32,000 nt of DNA. Origin: Acaryochloris marina S15. Lineage in GTDB: Bacteria > Cyanobacteriota > Cyanobacteriia > Thermosynechococcales > Thermosynechococcaceae. Shown here in pieces: positions 7,581 to 30,644 of this stretch. Both the position numbers and the translations under genes were made by a program. Each line of letters begins with the position of its first letter. Position 1 is the stretch's first letter. The notes under the pieces are model-generated. The model did not search any database and was not told the DNA's origin. It was given only the letters and a program-made list of their open reading frames with translations. The stretch is taken from NCBI RefSeq assembly GCF_018336915.1, contig NZ_CP064923.1, positions 1,140,001-1,172,000 of the forward strand. Reading direction: 5' to 3'.

Positions 7581-9059
7581 TTAGCTCTCTTCCACTGCAG
7601 TACCGTCATCGGTAGGATCTAATTTTTCCTGCAGCTCGGTTTTGATGCGGTTCAAAATAGTGGCCTGATCTAGAGAAGAGAGAATCTCGTTGACCACGGT
7701 TTTGGGGCCATTGGGTCCCCAGGATGCCCCATTGATCAGGTACCGTTTGGTAACTTCACCAATCCCATAGGAAGAGACACCCGCTACAGCTGCTTGCGAG
7801 ATGGCAACAGAAACATAGGGCAACAGGGAGGCTCCCCCCGTCGCCGGAGCCGCTAGACTGAGTAGCCCTTTGAGGGAACTTAGTCCCAGGGTGGTGAGGA
7901 GTTCCGTAGCCCCAACGCCGCCCATGGTTAAGGCAATTTTGCGCAGTAAATCCACGGCCCCTTTTTGGGTCATGGAAATGCCGTAAAGCTTAGAGAGGGT
8001 CAGGATCATGGCAATGTCGATGGCGGCACTGCTGATCACATCCACAACGGTGACGGGATTGAGAGCAATGGCGACTGCTTTAGCCATTACCCCGCGCCAA
8101 ATGATCTGATTCGCACTGCGATCGCGGATCCGCATCTTCCGCTCAATCAGCTGCTCATTAATATCATCGGCATAGAGCATGGTGTTCAGGGCCACCAGGG
8201 ATTTACCTTCTCGCTCCAACACTTCTAAAATCTTCAGCTTTAGATCCTGGACTTGGGGTGGTCCTGGTACGAGTTCTGCTCCCAAGCGACCATCAGGATA
8301 TTGAATCGCTTGGGCCATCAGTGGGGCCGCCGAGGCCATGACAATCTCATCGGCAGACAGCAACTCTCGCACCCGTTCGTCTCGGATTTTCTCGTAAATG
8401 GCGTTGCGATCGGCTTCGGGATATTGGTCCACTTTATTGAACACCAGTAGGATCGGTTTACTGGCCTGCCGCAGCTCCGATAGAGCCTCAAACTCCACCT
8501 TGGTCATATCCCCAGCAATCACAAACAGAATCAAATCCGCCTGCTGGGCAATTTGGCGGGCCAGTCGTTCCCGCACCTCACCATCGACTTCATCGATGCC
8601 GGGGGTATCAATCAGCTCAATCCGGGACTGCCCCACCCCTTGCAACGACACCCGAATCGCATCTTCACCGGATTTTTGATCCACAAACCAGCTAGCCTGC
8701 TGACTCTGTTGGGTGACTCCATGCACCGGCCCGGTAGCAAAAATGGACTGTCCCAACAAAGCATTCAAGAGAGACGATTTCCCTCGACTGACCATGCCAA
8801 ACACGGCGATGTGCACCACCTGTTTTTCCAGCTTGTCGAGCATGGACTGCAGGGAGTTAATTTCGGTTTCCAAGCCTGCTCGTTCTCGGGGAGAGAGATC
8901 GAGTTTCTCCACTAAGGTTTCTAGGGCAGAATGGGCTTGCTGATACCCGAGTTCTGCCTGCATTTGCTCAAAATCTTGGATGGTCTGGTCCAGTTCAGCT
9001 TCTAAGGTTTCTGGATCAGAATGCTCAAAGGCGTAAGGATTGGGAAAACCGGAGGTCAT
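7581..9059 (-). CDS. GTP-binding protein with C-terminal membrane-associated DUF697-like domain
   Basis: G1 GMVSRGKSS, G3 DTPGIDE, G4 NKVD. The hydrophobic Gly/Ala-rich C-terminal half is as in YcjF/DUF697-type GTPases. Same strand as the kinase array and 105 bp downstream of it. Confidence 0.8.
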   Translation of the reverse strand: MTSGFPNPYAFEHSDPETLEAELDQTIQDFEQMQAELGYQQAHSALETLVEKLDLSPRERAGLETEINSLQSMLDKLEKQVVHIAVFGMVSRGKSSLLNALLGQSIFATGPVHGVTQQSQQASWFVDQKSGEDAIRVSLQGVGQSRIELIDTPGIDEVDGEVRERLARQIAQQADLILFVIAGDMTKVEFEALSELRQASKPILLVFNKVDQYPEADRNAIYEKIRDERVRELLSADEIVMASAAPLMAQAIQYPDGRLGAELVPGPPQVQDLKLKILEVLEREGKSLVALNTMLYADDINEQLIERKMRIRDRSANQIIWRGVMAKAVAIALNPVTVVDVISSAAIDIAMILTLSKLYGISMTQKGAVDLLRKIALTMGGVGATELLTTLGLSSLKGLLSLAAPATGGASLLPYVSVAISQAAVAGVSSYGIGEVTKRYLINGASWGPNGPKTVVNEILSSLDQATILNRIKTELQEKLDPTDDGTAVEES

Positions 9060-9164: not shown

Positions 9165-10586
9165 TCAACGCTCTGAGGTTGTTGGCTGCTGGCTTTGGTG
9201 CTGTTGCAACCATAAGAAATCACTGATTTCATGCACCAGCCATTCTTTCTCTGGCAGGCTGAGCATTGTGCCAAATGTATGGCGTTGGCCTCCTTCAATT
9301 AGAGTACAGAGTTTATCAGAATTGGCAGTAGCGGCCGTTAACCTAACCCCATTTAAGGCTTTGGTGTTGCCCAGTGTTTGACCATAACGGAGACCCAGAC
9401 GGTCAATGTACCAGCAGATCTGAAACTGTTGAGGATTAATCTGTACGTGAATTCTTCCTGCTAACCCGAACAAGATTGCTGCCATCAGTAGGGTTCCACC
9501 TATGAGTAAAGGGAGTACGAACGCGAATATCATCTCAACAGGGATGGGGCCTTCAATCATTTTGAACATGCTGATAAGACCACTAGCCATGAGCGCAAAC
9601 AGAAACCCTTCAGCAAACAAGGCAAGCATTTCCATGCCGAGGACCTTGCCCCGCCAACCACTAGGAGGAATATCCACCGTGATCTGGGAGGGGATTCTCT
9701 GGATCTGAACTTTACTGCCTTTGGGCTGATGCCTTTTTCGTTGGGAGAACGATTGACGACGAACAGATCTGGGAGAGGACTGGGTTAAGGCTGCCAGCGC
9801 AGCCTGGGCTGAGGGTAAGCGATCTTCCACCGCAGGTTCGAGTAGACGATCTAACCAAGTGGCAAAATCTGGCTGAAGTTGAACGGCTTTGCGAAAATCG
9901 ATCTTCAATCGCTGTTGGGGCAAATCTGCAGGAGAACAGTGAGTCAACAGGAATAGTAGAGTTGCCCCCAAAGAATAGAGATCCGTGGCCGGGCCAGCTT
10001 TCCCCTGAAAATGTTCGGGTGCCATATAGCCATAGGTGCCTACAACGGTACTGCCTGCCATCGTAGTTTGATAGACATGTTGGACCGCTCCAAAGTCCAC
10101 CAGATAAATCTGGCCATCGTCACTGCGAATAATATTTTGGGGTTTAATATCTCGGTGAATAATCGGTGGGGTTAAGTCATGCAAATACTTCAAGATATTC
10201 AAAACCTTCACCCCTAACTGTCGGACTTCAGCTTCAGAAGCTCGCCAACCCTCCTGCACTAAGTCAGCTAGAGAGCGACCAGGTGCTAGTTCCTGGACAA
10301 TATAAAAACAGCGGTTCTGCTCCGTATCCGTTTGGAAGTAATCGATGTAATTCGGTATCCCTGGATAATCGAGCTGAGACAAGACTTGGGCTTCGCGTTC
10401 AAATAATTCCAATTGCTTCCAATGGGTCATGCCTTTCAAAGACAGTTGTTTCAAAGCACACTGCTGATGGCTATCAAGATCTTCAGCCCCATAAGTGACT
10501 CCAGACCCACCTTGCCCCAGAATCGAGACAATACGGTATCGGTCGGCAACTCGATCACCGATCTGAAGATAAAGCGGTTCGTTCAA
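9165..10586 (-). CDS. Ser/Thr protein kinase with C-terminal 2-TM + beta-rich module (array copy K1)
   Basis: Hanks motifs are all present: GQGGSGVTY, ALKQL, HRDIKPQN, DFG, GTYGYMAPE. Two hydrophobic helices lie at about aa 315-375. C-terminal conserved block INPQQF...LT...CTL...FGTMLS.PEKEWLV.EI.DFL. Confidence 0.92.
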   Translation of the reverse strand: MNEPLYLQIGDRVADRYRIVSILGQGGSGVTYGAEDLDSHQQCALKQLSLKGMTHWKQLELFEREAQVLSQLDYPGIPNYIDYFQTDTEQNRCFYIVQELAPGRSLADLVQEGWRASEAEVRQLGVKVLNILKYLHDLTPPIIHRDIKPQNIIRSDDGQIYLVDFGAVQHVYQTTMAGSTVVGTYGYMAPEHFQGKAGPATDLYSLGATLLFLLTHCSPADLPQQRLKIDFRKAVQLQPDFATWLDRLLEPAVEDRLPSAQAALAALTQSSPRSVRRQSFSQRKRHQPKGSKVQIQRIPSQITVDIPPSGWRGKVLGMEMLALFAEGFLFALMASGLISMFKMIEGPIPVEMIFAFVLPLLIGGTLLMAAILFGLAGRIHVQINPQQFQICWYIDRLGLRYGQTLGNTKALNGVRLTAATANSDKLCTLIEGGQRHTFGTMLSLPEKEWLVHEISDFLWLQQHQSQQPTTSER

Positions 10587-10691
10587 AGTTGATCTGTTTA
10601 CGAGGAAAGCTATACTCCATTCTGCCCTCTCCCAGACTCGTACCTTATGATCACGGACCTCTAGTTCAGACTGAAGTCAATGGCCACAACC

Positions 10692-10950
10692 TCACGGTTG
10701 TTGTGTTTTCAAAAAATCACCAATTTCCTGTATTAGCCACGCTTTTTCACTAGGGCGAAGCTTCGTGCCGGCACTGTTTTGTTAAGGAGTGATAGGGATA
10801 TCAAACCTAAATCTAGAAAGACTTCTAGAAGTTTTCGCTTAAAATAGCTAGAACACTCTACTGGCAAGGGGTTTCGCGGGTTTATCACTCCTTAAGAGAG
10901 CAGTGCCTCAAAAAATAGGCTGGTCATCTAAAACAAGCATCAATTCTTTT
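10692..10950 (-). pseudogene. Remnant of a fifth kinase paralog (C-terminal end only), interrupted by a MITE-like element
   Basis: The reverse strand of 10692-10769 translates to GTKLRPSEKAWLIQEIGDFLKTQQP*, compared with GTMLSPSEKGWLVEEIGDFLMSQQR* at the end of K4. The piece beyond the insert (10908 to about 10950: KELMLVLDDQPIF) is only weakly similar. No kinase domain remains. Confidence 0.75.
10770..10907. mobile_element. MITE-like non-autonomous element (~138 bp) with ~25-bp terminal inverted repeats
   Basis: The left end GGCACTGTTTTGTTAAGGAGTGATA (10770-10794) matches the reverse complement of the right end, GGCACTGCTCTCTTAAGGAGTGATA (10883-10907), at 22 of 25 positions by hand. No ORF. 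It sits inside the kinase remnant. The target-site duplication could not be resolved. Confidence 0.65.
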
Positions 10951-10959
10951 GAAGCCCAC

Positions 10960-12342
10960 TCATCGCTGCTGAGATCTTAGAAAGTCACCAACCTCTTCGA
11001 CTAACCATGCTTGTTCCCGAGGACTAAGCCACGCCCCAAAGTGATAGTGAGAATCTTTAGTCATGAGAGTGCAGATTTTAACGGGAAGACCACTACTTGC
11101 ATAGGTGGTTGTCAACTTAATTCCTGATAAATCTACAGTTTGCCCACCTTGGCCATAGCGGCACCCTGGTAAATTAACCTGCCGGAATAACCGAAAATAC
11201 TCAGGATTAATCTCCAAGTATGTGTGTCCAACAATATAAAACAAAGCCGCTATTAACAGCCCAATCCCAATTCCCCCAACAAAAAAGATAGTGAACCCAA
11301 ACATCAGTGGGGATAAGCCGGCTCTAAAAACATTTAAAAGGACAACAAAAATCATTGCATTGACAAAGACCGTAAAACAGCCTGTGAGCACAGTGTCACT
11401 TCGCCAACCAATAGGCGGTATATGAACGAAAAGGCCTGTCTTCGTCTTCTGTAATTTAACCTTGCTATCATCTGGTTGATGATGGATGGTTAGAGATTCA
11501 GGTCCATTAAGAGTGAGTTGCTGTATGGCACTTGGCTGTCTTAGCACTGCAATCGCATCCTGAGCTGTAACAAACCGATCCTCTACCGCAGGCTCCAACA
11601 TGTGATCCAGCCAATCGGCAAAATCTGGATCGAGTTGTACGACTGAGCGAAAATCAATTTTGAGCCGTTTTTGAGGTACATCAGCAGGAGAGCAATGGGT
11701 TAAGAGAAAGATTAATGTCGCTCCCAAGGAGTAGAGATCAGTTGCAGGTACCGCTTTCCCCCGAAAATGTTCAGGGGCCATATAACCATAAGTACCGACA
11801 ATGGTGCTGCCCATCATCGTATGGTGATAAACAGTTTGCACAGCACCAAAATCGACCAAATAAATCTGACCTTTGTCGCTCCGAACAAGATTTTGAGGCT
11901 TAATATCCCGATGAATAATGGCAGGCGTTAGTTCATGCAGGTACGTCAAGATCTCCAGCACTTGCAACCCTATCTGTTGCACTTCAGATTGGTTTACTCG
12001 CCAACCTTGATTGACTAATGCAGCTAAAGATTTACCAGGGGCTAGTTCTTGGACAATATAGAACCATCGATCTTCCTCCGTATCCATTTGAAAGTAGTCA
12101 ATGTACCGAGGAATGGCTGGATGATCGAGCTGCGACAAAACCTGTGCTTCTCTGTCAAATAGTTCAAGCTGTTTCCAACCCCGTATTCCTTTAAGAGACA
12201 ATGCTTTAAGGGCATACTGCTGATGAGTATGAACATCTTCAACTGCGAAGGTTATACCACTGCTCCCCTGCCCCAAAACAGATTGCGTACGATACCGTCC
12301 AGCAATGAGGTCACCAATCTGGTGTAAGGGTTGCCTAAGCAT
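10960..12342 (-). CDS. Ser/Thr protein kinase with C-terminal 2-TM + beta-rich module (array copy K2)
   Basis: Same motifs as K1 (GQGSSGITF, ALKAL, HRDIKPQN, DFG, YMAPE). The start is placed at ATG 12340-12342 (MLRQPLHQIGDLIAGRY) because all four copies then have 9 residues before the conserved GD. The ORF-track start at 12414 reads through the conserved spacer. Confidence 0.9.
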   Translation of the reverse strand: MLRQPLHQIGDLIAGRYRTQSVLGQGSSGITFAVEDVHTHQQYALKALSLKGIRGWKQLELFDREAQVLSQLDHPAIPRYIDYFQMDTEEDRWFYIVQELAPGKSLAALVNQGWRVNQSEVQQIGLQVLEILTYLHELTPAIIHRDIKPQNLVRSDKGQIYLVDFGAVQTVYHHTMMGSTIVGTYGYMAPEHFRGKAVPATDLYSLGATLIFLLTHCSPADVPQKRLKIDFRSVVQLDPDFADWLDHMLEPAVEDRFVTAQDAIAVLRQPSAIQQLTLNGPESLTIHHQPDDSKVKLQKTKTGLFVHIPPIGWRSDTVLTGCFTVFVNAMIFVVLLNVFRAGLSPLMFGFTIFFVGGIGIGLLIAALFYIVGHTYLEINPEYFRLFRQVNLPGCRYGQGGQTVDLSGIKLTTTYASSGLPVKICTLMTKDSHYHFGAWLSPREQAWLVEEVGDFLRSQQR

Positions 12343-12446
12343 GGAGTGAATGGTTAAAAACGCAATATTCCTATTGTGTCTTGACCTGAGCAATGGGGCT
12401 GTGATCGAAGGCAATCAACTGTTTAAGCGTAGCCTCCTCATGCTTG
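12343..12446 (-). repeat. Conserved inter-kinase spacer, copy 1 (K3-K2)
   Basis: Shares a ~37-nt near-identical core (ttaaaaacgcaataTtCctattgtgtcttgacct) and a looser flank with 13803-13897. On the mRNA strand it forms a weak AT-rich hairpin followed by UUUUU just before the start codon. Confidence 0.7.
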
Positions 12447-13802
12447 TTAGGGCCTCAAAAAATGACCTATTGTCTCGACTAACCAGGCTTGTTCATGGGG
12501 ACTTAGATGTGTGCCAAAACTATATTGATGGTCTGTTGTGAAAAGAGTGCAGTATTTGACTTTACTCTTAGGAGATGTTGTTAACTTAATCCCGATCAAA
12601 TCTAAAGTACGCCCTTTACGAGAACATTGTAGGCCGGGTAAATGAACCCGCCAGGACAAACGAAAATGATGAGGATCTATTTTGAGATGAGTATGCCCCG
12701 CAATAGCGAAGAAAACGGAATTGAACATCCCAATGCCAATCATCCCCCCGAGACCCGCAGCAACCCCAAAGATCAATGGGGGCATGGCAGCTTTAAAAGC
12801 TAATAAAAACACAATCAGGATGCAGACATTGACCCAAAGCTGAAGACACTCTTGTTTCAAAGTTTCCCAGTGCCAGCCAACGGGGGGAATATGAACGGTC
12901 AGCGAAGCCTCCGTCTGATGCAATTTAATGTTGCTACCCATGGGCTGGGCTGGTACTACACCACTCACAAGCGAGCGTTTTGTTGTCATGCTGGGGTGTA
13001 TTAGGGTTGCGATCGCAACCTGTGCTGAACCAAACCGATCCTCTACCGCAGGCTCCAGCATGTGATCCAGCCAATCGGCAAACCCAGGGTCAAGCCTGAC
13101 GACTGAGCGAAAATCAATTTTCAGACGTTTTCGGGGTAAATCAGCAGGAGAACAATGGGTGAGTAGAGATAGCAGTGTTGCTCCCAGAGAATAGAGGTCG
13201 GTTGCAGGAACCGCCTTTCCTTGGAAATGCTCAGGAGCCATATACCCATAGGTACCCACCACTGTACTGCCCATCATCGTATTGTGATAGACATTTTGGA
13301 CCGCCCCAAAATCGACTAAAAAGACCTGGCCCTCATCGTTACGAATGATATTTTGGGGTTTAATATCTCGATGAATAATCGGTGGCGTTAGCTCATGCAG
13401 ATATTTCAGAATGTCTAGAATCTGCAAAGCCAACTGACGGACTTCGGCTTGGCTGGCCTGCCATCCGTCTTTCATCAAATCTGTGAGGGATTTACCGGGG
13501 GCTAATTCCTGAACAATATAGAACCATCGATCTTCTGCAGTGTCTGTTTGGAAGTAGTCGATGTAATGGGGAATCGCTGGATGATCCAGCCGGGATAAAA
13601 CCTGTGCTTCGCGCTCAAACAGCTCTAACTGTTTCCAATCCTGAATTCCCTTGAGGGATAAAGCTTTGAGAGCATACTGCTGATGAGTATCAACATCTTC
13701 CACAGCGAAGGTTATGCCAGTGCTACCCTGCCCCAACACGGATTGCACGCGATACCGTTCAGCAATGAGATCGCCAATTGGGTGTGAAGTCTGCAAAAGC
13801 AT
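12447..13802 (-). CDS. Ser/Thr protein kinase with C-terminal 2-TM + beta-rich module (array copy K3)
   Basis: 451-aa ORF with all Hanks motifs intact (ALKAL, HRDIKPQN, DFG, YMAPE). C-terminal block IDPHHF...LT...CTLF...FGTHLSPHEQAWLVETIGHFL. Confidence 0.92.
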   Translation of the reverse strand: MLLQTSHPIGDLIAERYRVQSVLGQGSTGITFAVEDVDTHQQYALKALSLKGIQDWKQLELFEREAQVLSRLDHPAIPHYIDYFQTDTAEDRWFYIVQELAPGKSLTDLMKDGWQASQAEVRQLALQILDILKYLHELTPPIIHRDIKPQNIIRNDEGQVFLVDFGAVQNVYHNTMMGSTVVGTYGYMAPEHFQGKAVPATDLYSLGATLLSLLTHCSPADLPRKRLKIDFRSVVRLDPGFADWLDHMLEPAVEDRFGSAQVAIATLIHPSMTTKRSLVSGVVPAQPMGSNIKLHQTEASLTVHIPPVGWHWETLKQECLQLWVNVCILIVFLLAFKAAMPPLIFGVAAGLGGMIGIGMFNSVFFAIAGHTHLKIDPHHFRLSWRVHLPGLQCSRKGRTLDLIGIKLTTSPKSKVKYCTLFTTDHQYSFGTHLSPHEQAWLVETIGHFLRP

Positions 13803-13897
13803 GAGGCGCTAAATTAAAAACGCAATACTTCTATTGTGTCTTGACCTCAACAATAGATTGGTGATCTAGAGCAATCAGCCGTTCTTCCTCCAGCCCT
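13803..13897 (-). repeat. Conserved inter-kinase spacer, copy 2 (K4-K3)
   Basis: Homologous to 12343-12446 (core ttaaaaacgcaataCtTctattgtgtcttgacct). This shows that the duplicated unit was gene plus spacer. Confidence 0.7.
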
Positions 13898-15280
13898 TCA
13901 ACGTTGCTGAGACATCAAAAAGTCACCGATTTCCTCGACTAGCCACCCTTTTTCACTAGGGCTGAGCATAGTCCCAAATTTGTGGGTGTTAACACCTTCT
14001 AATAAGGTGCAGCCTTTCACAGGGCGATCATTACTGGTATAGGCAACCGTTAGCTTAATCCCTTCAATATCTTCAGTACGGCCACTACGACGGTATCGAA
14101 ATCCCAAAGACTTTACTTGCCAGATTAATTCAAAGGTTTGAGGATTAATCTCCAAATGGGTGCGTCCTGCCATGCCAAAGATAGTCGCTCCTGCCATACC
14201 GAGACCGACAATCCAAAACGGAATAGAAAATAAGGGGAATATAAAAGGAGCGCCAGCCGCAATTGCTCCTGCAGTCCACACAAAAATAAACCCGTTCCAA
14301 AATACTGCAAAACACCCAATCCCAGCCGTTTCTCCTCGCAATCCGATGGGGGGAATATCAACTTTTAGGTCAGTCTTGGTGCGTTTTAAGGTTACTTTAC
14401 TGCCCATCGGTTGCCGACGCAGGTCTTTGGCGCTGGGTTGAGCTATCGCTGAGGGGGGCGAACGGCGGGGAGGAGCTGTAAGCATATCAATCGCATCCTG
14501 AGCGGAAGCTAACCGATCTTCCACGGCAGGTTCCAGCATTTGATCGAGCCAATCGGCAAAGTCCGGTTTGAGCTGGACAGCAGAGCGAAAGTCAATCTTC
14601 AGCCGTTTTTGAGGCAAATCTGCAGGGGAGCTGTGGGTAAGCAAAAATAGCAATGTTGCTCCAAGGGAATATAAGTCCGTAGCAGGAACCGCTTTTCCTC
14701 GGAAATGTTCGGGAGCCATATAGCCATAGGTACCGACGACAGTACTACCCACCATCGTATTTTGATAAACATTTTGGACTGCTCCAAAATCCACCAGGTA
14801 AATCTGACCGTCTTCGCTACGGATAATATTTTGCGGCTTAATATCTCGATGAATAATCGGTGGCGTTAGCTCATGCAAGTATTTCAAAATATCTAGAATT
14901 TGCAAGGCGAACTGGCGAACTTCAGTTTGGCTTGCTCGCCATCCCTCTTTCACTAGGTCTGCTAAGGACTGACCCGGCGCTAGTTCCTGAACAATATAGA
15001 ACCACCGATTTTCTTCGGTATCAGTTTGGAAATAGTCGATGTAGTTGGGGATGGCTGGATGATCCAGTTGGGATAAAACTTTGGCTTCTCGCTCAAACAG
15101 TTCGAGCTGCTTCCAATCTCCCATTCCCTTTAGGGATAGTTCTTTGAGGGCAAATTCTTGGTGAGAATAGATGTCTTCTGCGGCATAAGTAATGCCAGCC
15201 CCTCCCTTGCCGAGCACGGAAAGGAGACGGTATCGTTCCGCGATTAAATCTCCGGCCTGGCGATGGGAATGCTCAAACAT
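13898..15280 (-). CDS. Ser/Thr protein kinase with C-terminal 2-TM + beta-rich module (array copy K4, first gene of the array)
   Basis: Motifs GKGGAGITY, ALKEL, HRDIKPQN, DFG, YMAPE. The start is placed at ATG 15278-15280 (MFEHSHRQAGDLIAERY) by alignment with K1-K3. The ORF-track extension to 15370 translates a perfect palindrome. Confidence 0.9.
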   Translation of the reverse strand: MFEHSHRQAGDLIAERYRLLSVLGKGGAGITYAAEDIYSHQEFALKELSLKGMGDWKQLELFEREAKVLSQLDHPAIPNYIDYFQTDTEENRWFYIVQELAPGQSLADLVKEGWRASQTEVRQFALQILDILKYLHELTPPIIHRDIKPQNIIRSEDGQIYLVDFGAVQNVYQNTMVGSTVVGTYGYMAPEHFRGKAVPATDLYSLGATLLFLLTHSSPADLPQKRLKIDFRSAVQLKPDFADWLDQMLEPAVEDRLASAQDAIDMLTAPPRRSPPSAIAQPSAKDLRRQPMGSKVTLKRTKTDLKVDIPPIGLRGETAGIGCFAVFWNGFIFVWTAGAIAAGAPFIFPLFSIPFWIVGLGMAGATIFGMAGRTHLEINPQTFELIWQVKSLGFRYRRSGRTEDIEGIKLTVAYTSNDRPVKGCTLLEGVNTHKFGTMLSPSEKGWLVEEIGDFLMSQQR

Positions 15281-15335
15281 AACGTTGTTAGCTGACATAA
15301 CATCAGGTTGCCCGCATAGGTGCTCTCTCTTGCAG

Positions 15336-15372
15336 AGATGGAGCTTCAACATGATGAATTGAAGCTCCATCT
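15336..15372. promoter_or_regulatory. Perfect 14-bp inverted repeat upstream of the kinase array
   Basis: agatggagcttcaa (15336-15349) / ttgaagctccatct (15359-15372) with a 9-nt loop. It begins 56 nt upstream of the proposed K4 start, in the K4/pheT divergent region. Its function is unknown (operator or 5'-UTR hairpin). Confidence 0.4.
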
Positions 15373-15772: not shown

Positions 15773-18214
15773 ATGCGTATCTCTCTCAATTGGCTTAAGG
15801 ATCTAGTCGATATCGATCTGTCACCCGAAGACCTGGCAGAACAACTGACTCTAGCTGGTTTTGAAGTCGAGGATATTGAAGATTTACGCACTTGGGCGGA
15901 TGGCGTTGTGGTGGGAAAAGTTCTAACCTGTGAGTCCCATCCCAATGCTGATAAACTGCGGGTTTGCACCGTTGATATTGGTGAAGCAGAACCATCTCAA
16001 ATTGTCTGTGGTGCCCCCAACGTCAAGGCCGGACTGTTCGTTCCCGTTGCTACCTTGGGCACCTACTTACCCACACCTGACTTAAAAATTAAAAAAGCCA
16101 AACTCCGAGGCGTCCCCTCTGCGGGCATGATTTGCTCTCTTACCGAACTGGGTTTAGAAAGCGAGATTGACGGTATCCATAGCTTTGATGCGGATGGCGT
16201 AGCAGTTGGAGGGGATGTTCGTCCCCTCTTAGGACTGGATGACGTCATCTTAGATCTGACCTCCACTGCTAACCGTGCCGATGCCCTGAGCATGGTCGGG
16301 GTCGCCCGTGAAGTTACGGCGCTGACAGGAGCACAGCTGAAACTACCGACCACGCCCAAACTAGATATTCCGTCGGGCAAAGACATCAAAGTGGAATTGC
16401 CTGACTCTGAAGCCTGCCCTGCCTATATCGCCACTGTTCTAGAAGGCATCACCATCGCCCCTTCTCCAGACTGGCTGCAGCAACGACTGATTGCCGCTGG
16501 CACTCGCCCCATTAATAATGTGGTGGATATTACCAACTATATTTTGCTGGAGTGGGGACAGCCCCTCCATGCCTTTGATGCTGATGCCCTCGACGCTTTA
16601 GGGAAGAAACAGCCCCTAACTTTGAGTGTACGTCTAGCTAAAGCAGGTGAAACGCTTACGACCCTGGATAGCCAAAAGCGTGAGCTGCAAGAACAAACCC
16701 TGGTGATTACCGCTAATGATCAGCCTGTGGCATTAGGGGGCGTTATGGGAGGAGAAGATACGGAAGTTAAAGACACTAGCACCCGCTTGGTTCTTGAAGC
16801 TGCCCTATTCAACTCTCTGGTTATTCGGCGCTCAGCTCGTAGTCAAGGCTTGCGAAGTGAAGCCTCTGCTCGCTATGAACGTGGGGTGAATGAATCTCAG
16901 CTAGAAACCGCCTGCTTACATGCCCTGCAATTATTGGTAGATCTGACAGGAGCCAAGGTGGTGGCCCAACAGCGAGCCGACCATCGCAAATCCCTAGAAC
17001 GGTCGATTGAGCTGCGTCTGGATCGAGTCAATCATGTGTTGGGTAAAGTCAAAGGCAAGCAAGGTGAACCTACCGACTTAACGGACAAGGACATTCTACC
17101 AATCCTCAAATCCCTTAGTTTTGATACCACCCCGACCGATCGATCTGAGACTTGGACTGTCACAGTGCCGCCTCATCGTCATAGTGATATCGAACGGGAA
17201 ATCGACTTGGTGGAGGAAATTGCTCGACTGTATGGCTACGACAATTTCTGTGAAACCTTACCTGCTAAAACCGAGTTAGGAAGCCTATCCAGCCAGGATA
17301 CTTTGGCCCGTAAACTTAGAGAAGCCTTCCGAGCGGTGGGTCTCACGGAGTTGATCCATTATTCCTGGGTAAAGCCTGAAGGTGACGAGCAGGTGGTGGT
17401 GGTAAATCCATTGCTAGTAGAGTTCTCCGCTCTGCGCACAGAAATGCTCACTAGCCTGCTCAATGCCTGCCAGCGGAATTGGGAACAGGGTAATGGAGCC
17501 TTAAATGGCTTTGAAGTCGGTCAAGTGTTCTGGAAAGACGGCGAAAAGCTGAAAGAAGCTCGGGCCATTGCAGGCATTCTGGGGGGTGACCCTGCCCAAG
17601 GCAAATGGATGCGCACCGCAAATCAGGACTATGCCATGACTTGGTTCGAAGCCAAGGGCTTACTGGAGCGAGTGCTGAACCAGTTGGGATTGTCTGTGAC
17701 ATTTCAGTCAGATTGCCCTGATGAACGGTTACATCCTGGGCGAACAGCCGCCCTGCTCTCCCAGGGAGCGAAGTTAGGCTATTTTGGCCAAATTCATCCT
17801 CAGGTGCAGCAGGACCGGGATTTGCCAACAGTCTATGTGTTTGAGCTGAATTTAGATCTGCTGCTAGAACAACTCGCCCGACTGCAAACCAAGTCAACCC
17901 TGTTCTCCACCTATTCTACCTATCCAGCCGCCGATCGGGATTTGGCTTTCTTTATCCCCACGGATATCACCGTTGCGGAAATCGAAAAGGTGATTCGCAA
18001 GGCGGCAGGTGGCCGCAAGCAATCTCTGCTCACGGCCATTGAGCTATTTGATGAATATCAGGGGGAGCATGTGCCAGACGGGCAGCGGAGCTTGGCGTTT
18101 CGATTGCTGTATCAGGCCTGCGATCGCACCCTCACAGACGAAGAGGTCAACCCCATCCACCAAAAGGTACGTGACGCCCTCGAAAAACAGTTCAAGGTTA
18201 GCCTCAGAAGCTAA
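15773..18214 (+). CDS. pheT: Phenylalanine--tRNA ligase beta subunit
   Basis: 813-aa ORF. The canonical N-terminus [33 protein letters not shown], the tRNA-binding, B3/4 and B5 regions, and the length are all typical of PheT. Confidence 0.95.
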
Positions 18215-19536
18215 GTCAGCTGACTTTCCGCTTTCTCGGGAAGTTTCACAATAATTTGATTGCGGCCATTGACTTTGGCCTCATAGAGAGCTGCATCCGC
18301 AACCGCCACCAAGTTCGTCGGGTGATAAATCGGTTGGGGAACGGTACTAGCAACGCCAATACTCAAGGTGACGTGATCGGCCACCTCCGACTGCAAATGC
18401 TCAATCTGCAAATCGAGCATGGCCCGCTGGATTTTCTCTGCTACCAGGCAGGCCTGTTTATGATCTGTATTGGGCATGATTACTGCAAACTCTTCTCCCC
18501 CATACCGAGTCGCTAAGTCCCCCGTCCGCCTGACATTGGCATTAATCGCACGGGCAATTTTTTGGAGGCAGTGATCCCCCGCTTGATGGCCATAGGCATC
18601 ATTAAAAAGCTTGAAATAATCGGCATCACACATAATTAGGGCCAAAGGTCTCTGTTGGCGCTGCATCCGCCGCCATTCTTGCTCCAACACCTGATCAAAA
18701 CACCGCCGATTAGCTAGTTCAGTCAAGCCATCCAGATGGGCAAGGCGATTCAAGGCAGCGGTCTTGGCCTCGACCTTAGATTGCAAAATTTGATTGCTAT
18801 TTTGTAAATAACTAATCACCAGGATGAGACTTGTGACTGCCAGACAACCAATTACAATCAACGTGGTCCAGATACTCTTTAATCCTTCTTGAGCCTGGGC
18901 AACAAAGGCATCAATGGGCTGCGTGATTTCTATAACCCCGCGCACATCACCCACCTGCCAATCGGTTTTAGGACTACCCGGCCAAGTGTTATGACACTTG
19001 ACACAGCTCGGTTCCATTTGGACGGCTTCGGCATAGCGAAACAAGAGGTGCTCCTTCTCCTTCGCTTTTTGGTAGTAGAAGCCAGTCGGATCTTGCTGTA
19101 AATACTTCAGAGCCTTCTGTTCAAAGACATTTTGGGGCCCCCCTGATCCTTGACGATTGGGAAAAGGATAGTCACTAAATAAGCGAAAAGATAGACCGCT
19201 TTCCGATTGGCTGACCCGCTCTCCTAATTCAATCGTAAAAGTTGCGGGTACTGGGATGCCACCCGTTATTTGATGGTACTCAGGACTTGCCGTCACACTG
19301 TCTACATCGTCCAAACGCCCCACCACAGACTGGCTGTAAAGGAGCCACGCTTCCTTGACCGTATTCACAGAAACGCGCGCATGTTGAAGCGCTTGGGCAT
19401 CCACTAAATCTGCCGACAACTCAAAGGTGCCAGAGAGGGCAACCCCCGTCCCAATGCAGAGCAGTAGCACTAGGATTAGCGCTATCCGTTGATACAACCA
19501 GAGTGTTAGCTTCCGAAACCGCTGCAAATTAGACAA
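18211..19536 (-). CDS. Diguanylate cyclase (GGDEF) with N-terminal TM-flanked Tll0287-like/DUF3365 haem-c sensor domain
   Basis: GGEEF active site ([11 protein letters not shown]). Periplasmic-type domain between two TM helices with CXXCH (SCVKCHN) followed by GDVRGVIEI, as in DUF3365. Its 3' end overlaps pheT by 4 nt (convergent). Confidence 0.88.
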
Positions 19537-23865: not shown

Positions 23866-24229
23866 TAGCTGTTTTACACCTTCCAGAATTATTGGTCCAT
23901 TTTTCAAAATTTATATCGAATAATTCTTGAGTTTCCAGTAAGGGAAGGTCTCGATTCTCTTGCAAGCTTTTTCTGTGAATGTGAATACAAAACACTATTT
24001 TAAGAGTAGGTGAGTTACGTTCTTTATCAGGAACCAGAGCTATCAAGATGAGAAGTATAACGCTAACTCTATGGCATTTTTGACTAACAGATACAGTTTC
24101 TGAATGACTTAACCTCCCTCAACCGAGTTAAACTTATTCGAAGTGGAAAAGGCAAATCAAAATGTCGATTTATGCCACAATTTGGGACGCCATCGTTATG
24201 CGACGATGCAAGCTAGGATTCAGAATAAA

Positions 24230-25351
24230 ATGACAAAACGTTTTCGCATCGCACTTTCATTTGCAGGAGAAAAAAGGGATTTTGTTGTCCGAATGGCGCA
24301 TGTCCTTGCAGATCGCTTTAGCGCAGACCAAATTCTTTATGATAAGTTTCACGAAGGAGAATTTGCCTGTAGTAATCTCGCCTTTCATCTTCCCTCGCTT
24401 TACCAGAATGAAGCCGATCTGGTCGTTGCTATCCTGTGCAATAACTACAGCGAAAAAGAGTGGTGTGGCCTTGAGTGGAACGCTATATATAGTCTGATCA
24501 AACAGGGTAATGTAAAACAAGTCATGCTTTTACGCTTTGACAGGGTCGAACCTGCAGAATTGTTCGGTCTTGCTGGTTTTGTTGATCTGGATGATAAGAC
24601 ACCAGAAGAAACAGCTGCACTTATTCTCAGTCGCCTTGCGATTAATAAAGGGCAAAAGAAGGATTACTATCTTTCGACAAACTCTATAGATCTTGATTGG
24701 CCTGATGTCACCCCTGTGCTTGACTGGCCTGTGGCAAATCATCGTGAAGCGAAGCTTGCTTTTGCAAAGCTAATTACGCATAGAGCACCATTCAGAATAC
24801 TTCCCATCTACGGTCCGACAGAAATAGGCAAGACTCACTTAACAAAGCAGTTTCTCCGACATGCATTTAAAATTCCGGGATTAACTTGCGGACGCCTAGA
24901 CTTCAAAGGCTCTACAGACATAGACACAGAACTGCGGATTTTTGCACAGAACCTCAAGGTTGAGACCCCATCTGGTAGTGTTGTCAGTCAACTTTCTCAA
25001 ATCTTTACTTCCCTCCAAAAGATAGCGCGTCCCACTCTCCTTATTTTCGACACGTTTGAGATGGCTGGAGAAGCAGAGAACTGGATGCAACAAAGTCTAC
25101 TCCTCTCCATCATTCGCGAAACTTGGCTACGTGTTATCGTAGTTGGCCAACAACCATTGAAAGTGCATGGAGAACCCTGGGATGGAGCAAGTGCCTCACC
25201 CATAAAGCTTAGCGTACCTAATCCAGAAGAATGGTTTGAGTTCGGCCAGACTTACAAGCCGAACCTCACGCTTGAGTTTGTTCGCCAAGCTCATGATTAC
25301 GCTGGCGGCAAGAGTGCGATACTTGCCCAACTGATAGGGCCTTCGGAGTAA
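24230..25351 (+). CDS. TIR-domain protein fused to a STAND-like P-loop NTPase domain
   Basis: N-terminal bacterial TIR pattern FRIALSFAGEKRDFV...ILYDKF...LVVAILCNNYSEKEWCGLEW, with the putative catalytic Glu codon at 24473-24475. Walker A GPTEIGKT (24812-24835). Walker B LLIFDTFE. STAND-like IKLSVPNPEEWFEF. The longest ORF starts at GTG 24143; ATG 24230 sits just before the TIR core. Confidence 0.85.
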   Translation: MTKRFRIALSFAGEKRDFVVRMAHVLADRFSADQILYDKFHEGEFACSNLAFHLPSLYQNEADLVVAILCNNYSEKEWCGLEWNAIYSLIKQGNVKQVMLLRFDRVEPAELFGLAGFVDLDDKTPEETAALILSRLAINKGQKKDYYLSTNSIDLDWPDVTPVLDWPVANHREAKLAFAKLITHRAPFRILPIYGPTEIGKTHLTKQFLRHAFKIPGLTCGRLDFKGSTDIDTELRIFAQNLKVETPSGSVVSQLSQIFTSLQKIARPTLLIFDTFEMAGEAENWMQQSLLLSIIRETWLRVIVVGQQPLKVHGEPWDGASASPIKLSVPNPEEWFEFGQTYKPNLTLEFVRQAHDYAGGKSAILAQLIGPSE

Positions 25352-25356
25352 CCCCC

Positions 25357-26958
25357 ATGAACTTCACTGAACAACTCCGTATTCTCAAAAATGCACAAGG
25401 TGACCCAGCAGCTCTCGTTCTTGCTAGTGTCGATATCGCCTATTTCACACTTACTGAGCCACAGCGTCAATCAATTAAACAGGCATTAATCGCTGCTGCT
25501 ATCCCGCACTGGTGTGATTCCGACCTGCTTGTGGCTCTGCTGGACACAACACCTGATAAGGGAGACATCTTATTCGATTATTTGCGCAAACTCACAGTTA
25601 TTGAACCCTTTCCTGCACGTGGAGAGAAAGCCATGAACGTTCACGAGTCTGCTCGCCTGACCTTGCGGGATTATTTGCGGAAGACAGACCCCGCTCGCTG
25701 GGTTCAACTTTCCACAAATGCCTGGAACTACTTAAACGAACACACTGAGACTCATGCTCGGATCGAAGCACTCTACCACTTGTTTGCGACCGATCAAATA
25801 GCTGCTGCAGCCGAATGCGAACTGCTAACTCAGGAAATCACACATTCTATGCAGCCTGAGAATACTACTGCACTCTCCCTTGCTCTGGAGGAACTAGCTA
25901 ATGCCAGCTGGCTCAAAGGAGCAGCCCGAGTGGAAGCACTACTAGCCACTTTTGAAGTTCGTAGTTTGCGCGGAGACACTGCCCAACTGGAGGATCAAGC
26001 GCTTCAAGTTATGAATCTTGCTCATGCAACATCCCGTCAATCAGGAATTTCCCGGGCACAGTGCCTTCTAGGAGACATCTACCAAACAAAAGGACGACTG
26101 GATGATGCGCTCAAAGCATTCAATGAATACCTCTCTATCTGTCAGAATCTGACTTCAGCCGATCCGTCTAACGCAAAATGGCAGCGTGATCTCGGCGTCG
26201 CGTATGCGAGGACCGGAGACATCTACCAAACAAAAGGACGACTAGATGATGCGCTCAAGGCATTCAATGAATACCTTTCTATCTGTCAGAATCTGATTTC
26301 AGCCGATCCGTCTAACGCAGTATGGCGGCGTGATCTCGGCGTCGCGTATGCGAGGACCGGAGACATTTACCAAACAAAAGGACGACTAGATGATGCGCTC
26401 AAGGCATTCAATGAATACCTTTCTATCTGTCAGAATCTGATTTCAGCCGATCCATCTAACGTAAAATGGCAACGTGATCTCGGCTTCGCGTATGTGAGAA
26501 CTGGAGACATCTACCAAACAACAGGACGATTGGATGATGCGCTCAAGGCATTCAATGAATATCTCTCTATCTTTCAGAATCTGACTTCAGCCGATCCGTC
26601 TAACGCAAAATGGCAGCGTGATCTCGGCGTCGCGTATTCGAGGACCGGAGACATCTACCAAACAATAGGACGACTGGATGATGCGCTCAAGGCATTCAAT
26701 GAATACCTTTCTATCTTTCAGAACCTGACTTCAGCCGATCCGTCTAACGCAGTATGGCAGCGTGAACTCGGCGTCGCGTATTCGAGGATCGGAGACATCT
26801 ACCAAACCCAAGGACGACTGGATGATGCACTCAAGGCATTCAATGAAGACCTCTCTATCTTTCAGAACCTGACTTCAGCCGATCCGTCTAACGCAGCATG
26901 GCAGCGTGAACTCGCTGTCGCGCATGCGAGGATCGGAGGCATCTATAAGGCCCTCTAA
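25357..26958 (+). CDS. Helical + TPR-repeat protein (sensor-arm half of the split STAND module)
   Basis: Starts 5 nt after the stop of the TIR-NTPase gene, with GGAG 9 nt upstream of the ATG. The N-terminal ~235 aa are helical. Six-plus 48-aa repeats follow (GDIYQTKGRLDDALKAFNEYLSICQNLTSADPSNAKWQRDLGVAYART), of the DPSN..WQRDL type common in bacterial NB-ARC/TPR proteins. Confidence 0.85.
   Translation: MNFTEQLRILKNAQGDPAALVLASVDIAYFTLTEPQRQSIKQALIAAAIPHWCDSDLLVALLDTTPDKGDILFDYLRKLTVIEPFPARGEKAMNVHESARLTLRDYLRKTDPARWVQLSTNAWNYLNEHTETHARIEALYHLFATDQIAAAAECELLTQEITHSMQPENTTALSLALEELANASWLKGAARVEALLATFEVRSLRGDTAQLEDQALQVMNLAHATSRQSGISRAQCLLGDIYQTKGRLDDALKAFNEYLSICQNLTSADPSNAKWQRDLGVAYARTGDIYQTKGRLDDALKAFNEYLSICQNLISADPSNAVWRRDLGVAYARTGDIYQTKGRLDDALKAFNEYLSICQNLISADPSNVKWQRDLGFAYVRTGDIYQTTGRLDDALKAFNEYLSIFQNLTSADPSNAKWQRDLGVAYSRTGDIYQTIGRLDDALKAFNEYLSIFQNLTSADPSNAVWQRELGVAYSRIGDIYQTQGRLDDALKAFNEDLSIFQNLTSADPSNAAWQRELAVAHARIGGIYKAL
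26071..26958 (+). repeat. Tandem 144-bp coding repeats (6 full units plus a partial one)
   Basis: Units start at 26071, 26215, 26359, 26503, 26647, 26791 and 26935. Units 1 and 2 differ at 7 of 144 nt by hand count. Confidence 0.9.
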
Positions 26959-27273
26959 TAGTATTACCTGTAGTTATAGAATCTGCGATTGAAGCTCTAA
27001 TAAATAATCCAGACTAACGCCAGCTATAAACTCTCGCTTTTACTGTTGATGACAACAACAGGATGGATCGAATCAACAGGATGACAATCCATCTACAGCA
27101 GATTTAAAGCTTTCAAACTCCGACGGGTCACTTCTGCCCGAGCGGGTAAATCTTTCTGATCATTGATATCGAGATTGGTGGCAAAAAAATAGACATTATC
27201 ATTTTGCTCTAAGTAACCGACATACCAACCAATGCCAGGCTGCAGTGCCCAACCCGTCTTCGCTCGGATGGTG

Positions 27274-27285
27274 TACTCAGGGGTT
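27274..27285. repeat. Target-site duplication, left copy (tactcaggggtt)
   Basis: Identical 12-mer at 28770-28781, directly abutting the IS inverted repeats. Confidence 0.85.
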
Positions 27286-28769
27286 CAATGTCACTGACTT
27301 AAGAAAGCAGAAAAGGGCTGCAAGTCTTGATAGATATAGAATCAAGACTTGCAATCCATCAATAATCTGCCTTCTACTATGTCTGAGTCAGCCGAAATTC
27401 TCAAGCATCAGTTTTCCCAAAGCCTGGGATTGCCCTGGACGGATATTCTTCCCGCTTCAAGGCTGACCGACATCCTAGCAGAGGAATCAATCTCCTATCG
27501 CAACCGTGTGTATACGCCCATCGTTACGTTGTGGGCCATGCTCTACCAAGCATTATCTGCAGACAAAAGCTTGCGCAACACAGTCAAATGCATCACCACC
27601 TGGCTCACTGCCGCAGGACTCCAACCCCCATCATCAGATACAGGAGCCTACAGTAAAGCCCGAGGAAGATTACCTGAGTCCCTGCTGCAACGGTTAATTC
27701 CCGAAACTGCTAATCACATAGAGCAAAGCATTCCCCAAGAACACCACTGGTGTAATCGAACAGTGAAAGTCTATGACGGCACGACAGTGCTGATGGCTGA
27801 TAGTGTGGCGAACCAAGGGGAGTATCCTCAACATGGCAATCAGGCTCCTGGCTGTGGATTCCCCATTGCCCGTTTAGTGGTGTTTTTTTGCTTAATCACA
27901 GGGGCAGTGGTCTCAGCCTGCATTGCCCCCTGGAGCATGAGTGAAATCGTCATCAGTCGGCTGCTTTATGAGGATCTGGAGGTTGATGATGTGGCCATAG
28001 CAGATCAAGCCTATGGCAGCTATGTTGATCTAGCCCTGATTCAACAACAAGGAGCCGATGGGGTTTTACGTAAACATCATGCCCGTCATACAGACTTCCG
28101 TAAAGGACGTAAGAACGGGATAGGAGACCACCAAGTTCAATGGCAAAAGCCCACACGGTGTCCCGCCCACATGAGTGCAACGGAGTTTGCAGAGATTCCC
28201 AAAACGTTGACAGTCAGGGAGGTATCGCTACGTCTATCGCGTCGAGGCTTTCGAGACCAGTTCATTATCGTCGTCACAACCTTACTGGATGCTCAGCGCT
28301 ATAGTGCTAAACAATTGACTCGCTTGTACGGATGGCGATGGCAGGCGGCTGAAGTCAATTTGAGACACCTCAAAACCACCTTAAAGATGGAAATGCTCAC
28401 AGCAAAGACACCTGAAATGGTGCGCAAGGATATTTGGTCTCATTTGCTAGGCTACAACTTATTGAGAAGTCTCATGGAACAGGCTGCCCCATGGGCAGAA
28501 TATGACCGCTCTCGACTCTCTTTACAAGGGGCTCGACAACACTTTAATCAGATGCTGGTTTTGTTAGCAACGGCCACACAAGCTATACGTCAACGGTTGT
28601 ATGCTCATCTGCTTGAAAATATTGCTACTGACCTTCTGCCTGTTCGACCCCATCGGCTCGAACCCAGGGTCGTTAAACGAAGACCTAAGCCCTTCCCCAG
28701 AATGCGACAACCGCGCTCTGTCCTCAAAGCCAATCTGGCTGCTTGATTAAGCTTATCTCAGTGCCATTG
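27286..28769 (+). mobile_element. IS4-family insertion sequence (1484 bp)
   Basis: Imperfect 18-bp terminal inverted repeats: CAATGTCACTGACTTAAG at 27286, and CAATGGCACTGAGATAAG as the reverse complement of the right end. A single DDE transposase ORF. A 12-bp direct duplication, which is within the size range known for IS4-type elements. Confidence 0.88.
27349..28746 (+). CDS. IS4-family DDE transposase
   Basis: 465-aa ORF filling the element. The N-terminal region (YRNRVYTPIVTLWAMLYQALS) and the DDE-type core resemble IS4-family transposases. A more likely ATG is at 27379. An 11-bp hairpin at 27321-27351 overlaps the TTG start. Confidence 0.85.
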   Translation: MQSINNLPSTMSESAEILKHQFSQSLGLPWTDILPASRLTDILAEESISYRNRVYTPIVTLWAMLYQALSADKSLRNTVKCITTWLTAAGLQPPSSDTGAYSKARGRLPESLLQRLIPETANHIEQSIPQEHHWCNRTVKVYDGTTVLMADSVANQGEYPQHGNQAPGCGFPIARLVVFFCLITGAVVSACIAPWSMSEIVISRLLYEDLEVDDVAIADQAYGSYVDLALIQQQGADGVLRKHHARHTDFRKGRKNGIGDHQVQWQKPTRCPAHMSATEFAEIPKTLTVREVSLRLSRRGFRDQFIIVVTTLLDAQRYSAKQLTRLYGWRWQAAEVNLRHLKTTLKMEMLTAKTPEMVRKDIWSHLLGYNLLRSLMEQAAPWAEYDRSRLSLQGARQHFNQMLVLLATATQAIRQRLYAHLLENIATDLLPVRPHRLEPRVVKRRPKPFPRMRQPRSVLKANLAA

Positions 28770-28781
28770 TACTCAGGGGTT
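28770..28781. repeat. Target-site duplication, right copy (tactcaggggtt)
   Basis: Identical to 27274-27285. Confidence 0.85.
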
Positions 28782-29582
28782 TGCTCCACAATCATGATCT
28801 CTTTCACCGTTGCGATCGCCCGGTCTGAAAAAGGCAGTTCATTGCGATACAAACGCTGAAGGAATTGAATCTGTTCCTTGGGTGAGATCCGTAAATCCCC
28901 TGTTAGCCAAAAGGTATCAATGTCATCGGCTTCTCCAATTAATTGGTTGCCATAGCCCACCGTGGTTACCCACTGCTGCATCTGCTGAAAGCCAATGCGA
29001 CGAGCTAACACCTGATAGAACCAGACCCCCGACACTTTAAAAGCCGTTTGCAGATTGAGGTCCCGATTCCAGGTGGGGATACTGCGTTCCACCCCATCCC
29101 AGGTCAAAATCGCCAGCTCATTGGCAATCACCCCTGTCTCTAACGCAATCAGAGAGTTGAGGATTTTAAAGGTAGACGCAGGCAAAAACGGCTGAGTATT
29201 GCGAGTCGAATTGTGCTGATAGGTTCGATTTCGTTTGAGGTCGTAAATCAGAATCGAGCCATTGACCTTTAGATCTTGAAAGGGTTGGGCCAGGGAAACA
29301 TTCTGCTGAACCAATTTAGGGGTGGCTGCTGCCGATGGCTCACCCAGGGGGATGGCGGTTAAATATAGACTTGCGATCGCATATCCAAAACATCGGGCAA
29401 CACAGTACCCTAGATTTTTATCGACATGATTAACCATATTCTCGATGACCTTCATTCAAACGGTTGTGGGGCTCGATCGGGGGGTGTTTATCGAGGTCGA
29501 TGCCTTGACCACCTTTTTAGGTTGCTCATCACTCAGTAAACAAGAGTTAGACTACTGCAGGAACTATTGCTACATACTAGGT

Positions 29583-30435: not shown

Positions 30436-30644
30436 TCCCTTGAATAGCCACCTTGATACAAAAATTCTGTCCAGTTGTATTGGAAGTTGGGGCGGTGCGA
30501 ACAACGGAAGGTTTTGAAGAGAGGCTAGAGATGTTGGGTAAGGGTGAGTAGATGTTCAGAATGACGGGGCTCGTTTGGGGAGTGATAGGAATATCCAGAC
30601 ATAACTGTTTAAAGGTCTGATCAAGACTCTATTTTGAGAGAAAT

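Follow-up and report, generated by a model that had tools for sequence, protein, structure and literature searches.

The DNA considered here is a stretch of 32,000 nucleotides from Acaryochloris marina S15 (NZ_CP064923.1, positions 1,140,001-1,172,000 of the forward strand), called the window below, and all coordinates are positions within it. Between 9165 and 15370, its minus strand carries four long intact open reading frames (ORFs), named here KA, KB, KC, and KD, which encode Hanks Ser/Thr kinases with a shared C-terminal module that contains two transmembrane (TM) helices. The genes of this array and their modules are as follows:

13898..15280, minus strand: KA, 460 aa, inside an ORF of 13898-15370 whose likely start is M31 (position 15280); Pkinase E 2e-42
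13898..14419, minus strand: the C-terminal module of KA, 173 aa
12447..13802, minus strand: KB, 451 aa, a diverged paralogue; module at 12447-12950
10960..12342, minus strand: KC, 460 aa counted from the conserved Met at 12342 of an ORF of 10960-12414, a diverged paralogue; module at 10960-11484
9165..10586, minus strand: KD, 473 aa, the most diverged paralogue, with a longer loop between the TM helices; module at 9165-9734

The start of KA was chosen by conservation with its orthologues, and the TTG at 10586 is the sole possible start of KD, no in-frame ATG or GTG being present upstream of the Gly-rich loop. The counterparts of KD in A. marina MBIC11017 and in bin.137 have Met-Leu as their first residues.

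The kinase domains are of an ordinary PF00069 (Pkinase) type, and this profile matches all four copies with E between 1e-40 and 1e-43 (139-147 bits, the cut-off being 31.7). In the alignment, the Gly-loop, the VAIK Lys, the αC Glu, HRDxKxxN, DFG, APE, and the Arg of subdomain XI are invariant in four of four copies. Pfam gives nothing above threshold for the four ORFs besides Pkinase, and the NCBIfam matches of the four proteins are generic kinase models, all sub-threshold. The activation loop is S/T-rich and partly disordered in a full-length AlphaFold2 model of KA. Pairwise identity among the copies is 73-82% in the kinase domains (79% between KA and KD), 25-40% in the linkers, and 31-49% in the modules. 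An initial annotation of this DNA, made from the sequence alone, had described four same-strand intact kinases with full Hanks motifs, with about 80% kinase identity between KA and KD and a C-terminal third more diverged than the kinase; the ORFs, the Pkinase matches, the invariant catalytic columns, and the measured identities bear this out. Also, the tail motifs that it quoted (KV.L...IPP.GWR, a hydrophobic stretch, and GRTHLEINP...EK.WLVEEIGDFL) are present in the four-way alignment.

The C-terminal module is predicted to be a PH-like β-sandwich with a TM hairpin inserted between its second and third strands, so that the domain order of KA is Hanks kinase, disordered linker, and split-PH/TM-hairpin module. 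The AlphaFold2 model of the KA module, built on a 47-sequence alignment, reaches a predicted local distance difference test score (pLDDT) of 97 and a predicted template-modeling score (pTM) of 0.86. It consists of two strands (residues 10-13 and 18-22), the TM helices (29-54 and 60-84), six strands between residues 86 and 148, and a final helix (154-172). In this model, the features expected of a PH-like fold are predicted, namely an antiparallel sandwich and a C-terminal helix with a conserved Trp, the hallmark Trp of PH domains, which is 99-100% conserved across the sets of 47 and 145 modules. A Foldseek comparison of the model with the PDB returned the human chaperone EROS/CYBC1, in its complex with NOX2-p22phox (8kei_D), as the top match and the sole one below 1e-3 (E 3.3e-6 over 174 columns; TM-score 0.51/0.54, root-mean-square deviation (rmsd) of 6.3 Å). 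The next matches are PH domains, those of Sac2, Brag2, Exo84, bacterial DUF1696, Lam6, TBC1D23, MTMR2, SIN1, and BTK, with probabilities of 0.8-1.0. The PH-like fold split by a TM hairpin that the initial annotation had proposed is therefore recovered both in the model and in the structural matches.

Each of the four proteins has a single hydrophobic region, at about residues 315-380. Because the N-terminal kinase, which lacks a signal sequence, is followed by two TM helices, both PH halves would be cytoplasmic, and the loop of 5-14 residues that joins the helices would be the sole outward-facing part. No extracytoplasmic sensor domain is present in the four proteins, everything but this short loop being on the kinase side of the membrane. 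The module would thus not be an extracytoplasmic ligand sensor, and the sensor domain that had been assigned to it is not supported by the predicted topology. In the full-length model of KA, with a pLDDT of 90.7, both domains are confident, whereas residues 275-286 of the linker of about 30 residues are disordered; given this disorder and a pTM of 0.63, no fixed interface between kinase and module is predicted.

At the sequence level, the module has no assignment at threshold in Pfam or NCBIfam, in agreement with the earlier statement that the tail belongs to no named family. When Pfam is searched at E<=10, the KA module gives a weak match to DUF2244 alone (12.9 bits, gathering score 27, E 0.095), in which module residues 32-165, from the TM hairpin through the domain after it, align with positions 10-135 of the 138 in the profile, and the modules of KB, KC, and KD show no DUF2244 match. 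DUF2244 is the sole recurrent Pfam family over 47 diverse modules (12 of the 47 with E<1, the best with E 3.6e-6), and one relative, P0015, scores 23.9 bits, still below the gathering score of 27. This suggests a distant relation of the module to DUF2244 and not membership. Families of the bPH type, including bPH_2 (PF03703), are not matched by the window modules at E<=10 or by the 47 relatives at E<=1, and the Ycf4 and DUF4564 profiles of Pfam give zero matches at E<=1 in the same 47 modules. When PDB sequences were searched with the profile of the module, a weak match to TM2-TM3 of TolQ (9kpz_A, 8odt_A; E about 1e-3) was obtained besides noise, over module residues 8-92, that is, the pre-TM strand and the TM hairpin, with the 'IPxxG' lead-in also aligned; kinship with TolQ was rejected because the match is probably a compositional, hydrophobic one. 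No description of this kinase-module fusion or of the Acaryochloris array was found in the literature. Likewise, nothing relevant was obtained on cyanobacterial Hanks kinases with PH domains or on kinase duplications in Acaryochloris, and the literature retrieved for Ycf4 and PH mostly concerned Ycf48 and Ycf39.

In an exhaustive search of 1.84 billion representative proteins with the module profile, 2,670 matched at E<=1e-3, 1,021 of them at E<=1e-10; word-indexed protein searches returned 3 matches with the KA module and 5 with the 47-sequence profile. The spread of the tail, which the initial annotation had proposed to check, is wide, and the kinase-module gene itself occurs across cyanobacterial genera. 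Among the top 150 representatives, the module is found C-terminal to Pkinase (1-3 copies), after Zn-ribbons (1-3), standalone, and in tandem. This variety of settings marks the module as an autonomous, mobile, and widespread domain, and it looks like an unnamed bacterial one. Several proteins carry modules after N-terminal Zn-ribbons or hold 2-4 tandem copies (P0003, P0014, P0032, and others; L079 6001-6741). The neighbors of such genes on metagenomic contigs (sulfatase, DUF1501, GFO_IDH_MocA) look Planctomycete-like, and the genomic contexts of the proteins with Zn-ribbons and modules were uninformative. Also, in the metagenome-assembled genome (MAG) Cyanobacteria bacterium P01_H01_bin.152 (L081 369-1745), kinase (256 aa) and module (189 aa, P0002) are adjacent separate genes, 36 bp apart, which would reflect either fission of the gene or else a frameshift or misassembly.

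A comparison with known systems places the module nearest to EROS. In EROS, two helices leave the PH domain "separated by H1 and H2", and six strands lead from H2 to the C-terminal helix (PMC11161758), so that the order of secondary structure is the same in both (two strands, two TM helices, six strands, and a helix), as are the hairpin-bisected PH domain and the cytoplasmic termini. However, sequence kinship with EROS/CYBC1 (Pfam DUF4564) is undetected, hhalign giving a probability of 0.5% for the EROS sequence, verified to be identical to 8kei_D, against the module profile. EROS has been reported to be homologous to Ycf4, a photosystem I assembly factor (PMC5379978), and it contacts NOX2 via both its TM helices and its PH domain (PMC11161758). 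Nonetheless, EROS and Ycf4 are standalone chaperones, whereas the module described here occurs as a fusion with kinases or Zn-ribbons, or in tandem.

For DUF2244 (PF10003), Xu et al. (2010) proposed two TM helices followed by a bacterial PH domain without β1 (PMC2817789). This TM-TM-PHb layout is common to DUF2244 and the module, but the DUF2244 model omits the conserved pre-TM β-hairpin of the module (QPxGS...L.V.IPP.G), and DUF2244 is without known function and is not described as kinase-fused. The pre-TM hairpin (QPxGS..L....L.V.IPP.G) plausibly supplies the strands that are absent from the bacterial PH domain of DUF2244. The PH-like fold is likewise shared with bPH_1 (DUF1696, PF08000), of which 3dcx and 3hsa are among the Foldseek matches. 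YdbS-type proteins (PF03703) combine TM helices with a cytoplasmic bPH domain. In bPH_1 and bPH_2, however, the TM helices precede the whole domain, whereas in the module they split it. On the kinase side, the PASTA kinases PknB/Stk1 and also PknD resemble the array proteins in having a Hanks catalytic domain with all motifs and a membrane anchor C-terminal to it. These enzymes cross the membrane with one TM helix and carry a large sensor domain outside, whereas in the array kinases a TM hairpin leads back to the cytoplasm and no external domain is present; the NCBIfam model NF033483 scores 134-155 for the four copies, its cut-off being 450.

Regarding the origin of the copies, the genes flanking the array in the window are 86-99% identical in protein sequence to those of A. 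marina MBIC11017, with a synonymous divergence (dS) of 0.35-0.8. The syntenic site, which lies upstream of the counterpart of the GTPase gene that follows KD in the window, holds six tandem kinase-module genes in the complete genome of MBIC11017 (NC_009925; L001 2596-11398). In bin.137, the site lies between pheT and that GTPase gene, and Acaryochloris MAGs have two copies or one at it. Because the complete MBIC11017 genome holds six copies at this locus, the array is real and not an assembly artefact, and the question of a strain-specific assembly error raised by the initial annotation is answered by comparative genomics. Among most other cyanobacteria (Microcoleus, Calothrix, Nostoc, Sphaerothrix, Chamaesiphon, and others) there is one copy, in a genome scan that used kinase alignment motifs and gives a phyletic picture biased toward cyanobacterial kinase fusions. 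Across Acaryochloris genomes whose flanks are >90% identical, between 1 and 6 copies are present, and orthology between strains holds for only some of them.

KA is the orthologue of A. marina copy 1 (Am_1; 95% identity in the kinase and 92% in the module) and is the copy nearest to the single-copy orthologues of other genera. KB is the orthologue of copy 5 (Am_5; 88% in the kinase and 87% in the module), KC has no clear orthologue in MBIC11017, and the positional counterparts of KD, Am_6 and copy 2 of bin.137, correspond to it loosely (75-79% in the kinase and 59-60% in the module). The proportion of synonymous differences (pS) between paralogues is 0.6-0.8, which is saturated, and it is equal in kinase and module; gene conversion as the cause of the kinase similarity was ruled out on this equality. 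Because synonymous sites between the copies are saturated, the duplications are old, and since KB has its orthologue in A. marina at 88/87% identity, they predate the strain split. A trace of a further gene is also found in the spacer of 373 bp between KC and KD:

10692..10781, minus strand: relic of a fifth copy, its last 24-28 codons and stop (GTKLRPSEKAWLIQEIGDFLKTQQP*)

The relic matches residues 436-459 of KA with 71% identity (tblastn, E 1.6e-6), and this tail is most like the KA/Am_1 type, the remainder of the fifth gene having been deleted. In a repeat search, the sole repeated spacer sequence in the array is a segment of 78 nt that derives from it. The recent duplications, spacer included, that had been postulated for this array are thus contradicted by the saturated synonymous sites, by the age of KB, and by the restriction of spacer repeats to this one relic. 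At this locus, a single cyanobacterial gene, which encodes a membrane-anchored Hanks Ser/Thr kinase, has thus undergone an old, lineage-specific expansion by birth and death.

The rates of nonsynonymous change (dN) complete this picture. Between paralogues, dN is 0.41-0.72 in the module vs 0.11-0.19 in the kinase, that is, 3-5 times higher in the module. Between orthologues, the ratio dN/dS (ω) takes the following values:

KA and Am_1: kinase 0.023, module 0.040
KB and Am_5: kinase 0.071, module 0.062, with dS about 1
KD lineage: kinase 0.08-0.10, module 0.16-0.24

Thus, module ω is raised in the KD lineage only, and outside the linker, which is unconstrained, ω stays far below 1 throughout. 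For the KA and KB orthologue pairs, these values point to strong purifying selection on both domains. The high dN between paralogues together with the low ω between orthologues implies therefore that divergence followed ancient duplications and was then frozen. The expectation that the module evolves differently from the kinase holds, then, for dN among paralogues, but not for the KA and KB orthologues, in which constraint is alike in both domains, and the "diversifying sensor family" of the initial annotation does not hold as an ongoing process, ω being 0.02-0.07 in both domains of these pairs.

The positions at which the paralogues differ were located with a family hidden Markov model (HMM) of 145 unrelated modules, in which 27 positions with >=60% family-wide conservation were scored. 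KA obtains 218 bits, within the range of the single-copy orthologues (205-223), and KC, KD, and KB obtain 143, 121, and 118, respectively. The family consensus is kept at 27/27 positions in KA, 19/27 in KD, 18/27 in KB, and 17/27 in KC. Together with the orthology described above, this marks KA as the ancestral founder copy. The TM hairpin, with its consensus residues F, W, F, and T in TM1 and F, F, W, and G in TM2, accounts for most mismatches (6 in KB, 6 in KD, and 8 in KC); the few others in KB-KD concern two positions after the TM helices, with a conservation of only about 62%, and isolated conservative changes. The intramembrane motifs of the family, F..W.NxF...WT in TM1 and LFSxPFWxxGxG in TM2, are replaced in KB, KC, and KD, and the strongly conserved PH-core positions FG..L...E..WL are retained in the three.

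Taken together, these data are best described, with slightly better than even confidence, as an old birth-and-death array in which the split-PH hairpin tethers the kinase and docks on a membrane partner, the paralogues having been rewired. According to this proposal, the module would tether the kinase to the membrane, and the TM hairpin together with the membrane-apposed PH domain would dock it onto an integral-membrane partner, by analogy with EROS on NOX2 and Ycf4 on photosystem I; KB-KD, with their changed hairpins, would address different membrane partners or substrates. Several observations weigh against such a role. The module structures are predictions, and docking derives from a structural analogy only, with a TM-score to EROS of 0.51-0.54 and the rmsd of 6.3 Å noted above; hhalign finds no sequence signal of EROS (0.5%), nor does Pfam find Ycf4 or DUF4564 in the 47 members. 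A cross-genus neighbor search reveals no conserved non-kinase neighbor that hints at a partner. Moreover, the loss of TM motifs in KB-KD could be relaxed constraint and not new specificity, and self-association would explain the tandem-module proteins no less well than docking. In this last case, the module would be mainly an oligomerization device whose units pack in the membrane, so that the kinases trans-autophosphorylate and the paralogues form homo- or hetero-oligomers, an alternative that we regard as possible but doubtful. The many family members with 2-4 tandem modules suggest module-module contact, bacterial PH domains assemble into oligomeric rings and oligomerization has been proposed for membrane-anchored PHb families (PMC2817789), the small-residue GxG and the aromatics of TM2 are typical of helix-helix packing, and the S/T-rich activation loop is predicted to be flexible. 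Nonetheless, KB-KD have lost exactly these TM motifs and yet are under purifying selection, and EROS, the closest structure, is a monomeric client binder (PMC11161758). It is unlikely that the module senses the lipid or the state of the membrane, with a hairpin-held PH domain that binds head-groups or responds to the bilayer and regulates the kinase. The PH-like fold, the lipid-binding PH domains of Sac2, MTMR2, Lam6, and BTK among the Foldseek matches, and the description of InterPro-type bacterial PH domains as lipid-binding (PMC9157124, citing Xu et al.) would favor it, but a conserved basic pocket was not identified, the conserved residues being hydrophobic, aromatic, or the E/W pair of the C-terminal helix, and the full-length model has no kinase-PH interface (pTM 0.63, disordered linker).

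Two further explanations concern the copies more than the module. That KB-KD are redundant duplicates drifting to loss, in an array with no specialized function beyond KA, we consider quite improbable: the relic of the fifth copy, the lost TM motifs, the TTG start of KD, and the strain-variable copy number are consistent with it, but catalytic residues are intact in 4/4 copies, the KB-Am_5 pair has an ω of 0.06-0.07 at a dS of about 1, and the PH core is retained. The view of the initial annotation, in which recent duplications yield new sensor specificities under positive selection, appears largely refuted and is in our judgement very improbable. It draws on the 3-5 times higher paralogue dN of the module, the 1-6 copies in Acaryochloris, and the module ω of 0.16-0.24 in the KD lineage; however, the copies are old by their saturated dS, ω is far below 1 outside the linker, the modules of the KA and KB orthologues are as constrained as the kinases, and an extracytoplasmic domain is absent.

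The gene directly downstream of the array, already called a DUF697-type GTPase in the initial annotation, is confirmed as such by its Pfam matches:

7581..9059, minus strand: GTPase with DUF697 membrane domain (DUF697 E 2.4e-39, MMR_HSR1 E 4e-18), 105 bp downstream of KD

Its NCBIfam match, slr1306_fam, scores below the cut-off of that model, and it is 96% identical to the syntenic A. marina gene. The linkage of kinase and GTPase genes is kept in A. marina and bin.137 and absent in the other genera examined, so it is specific to Acaryochloris. The initial annotation had suggested that the array and the GTPase gene could form one transcription unit; scans for promoters and terminators found no more sites than in shuffled sequence. 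Across genera, the conserved neighbors of the kinase genes are only other kinases and GAF/GGDEF-like signaling proteins, without a consistent partner, and scans of the window for Rfam families and tRNA genes returned nothing. Elsewhere in the window, a gene for a GGDEF diguanylate cyclase whose sensor domain is Tll0287-like is found just past pheT (18211-19536, minus strand), and two adjacent TPM-domain genes are found near the window end (29761-31049, plus strand). A gene for a TIR_2-domain protein (24143-25351) is directly followed by one for a large TPR protein (25357-26958), and the DDE transposase that comes next (27349-28746) overlaps a truncated ORF for a penicillin-binding transpeptidase (28724-29455, minus strand) at the end of the latter; the stretch 24143-29455 may be a defense-like pair beside an insertion-sequence disruption.

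Finally, the tail, and not the ordinary kinase, is the point of interest of this locus, as it appears to be a well-supported domain family without a name that counts thousands of representative clusters. What would be new is a PH-superfamily membrane module fused to Hanks kinases, an EROS-like split-PH domain; the PF00069 kinase and the PH-like fold as such are already known. A bolder proposal, which we advance tentatively and think rather unlikely to hold in full, is that the module is an unnamed and widespread prokaryotic counterpart of the TM-split PH client-binding fold of EROS/Ycf4, directing kinases to specific integral-membrane complexes. In this scenario, the cyanobacterial targets would plausibly be photosynthetic or respiratory complexes, and the 4-6-copy array of Acaryochloris would be a kinase panel in which each hairpin addresses a different membrane client. 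If the analogy is true, bacteria would gain a modular means to bring kinases or Zn-ribbon proteins to membrane-protein clients, and a prokaryotic system would be at hand for studying client recognition by the split-PH fold. Also, the evolutionary picture is corrected, from rapidly diversifying sensors to old duplications, purifying selection on each copy, and birth and death with a visible relic. The Acaryochloris array represents a natural experiment, in which a conserved founder stands beside paralogues whose differences from it are concentrated in the intramembrane hairpin.

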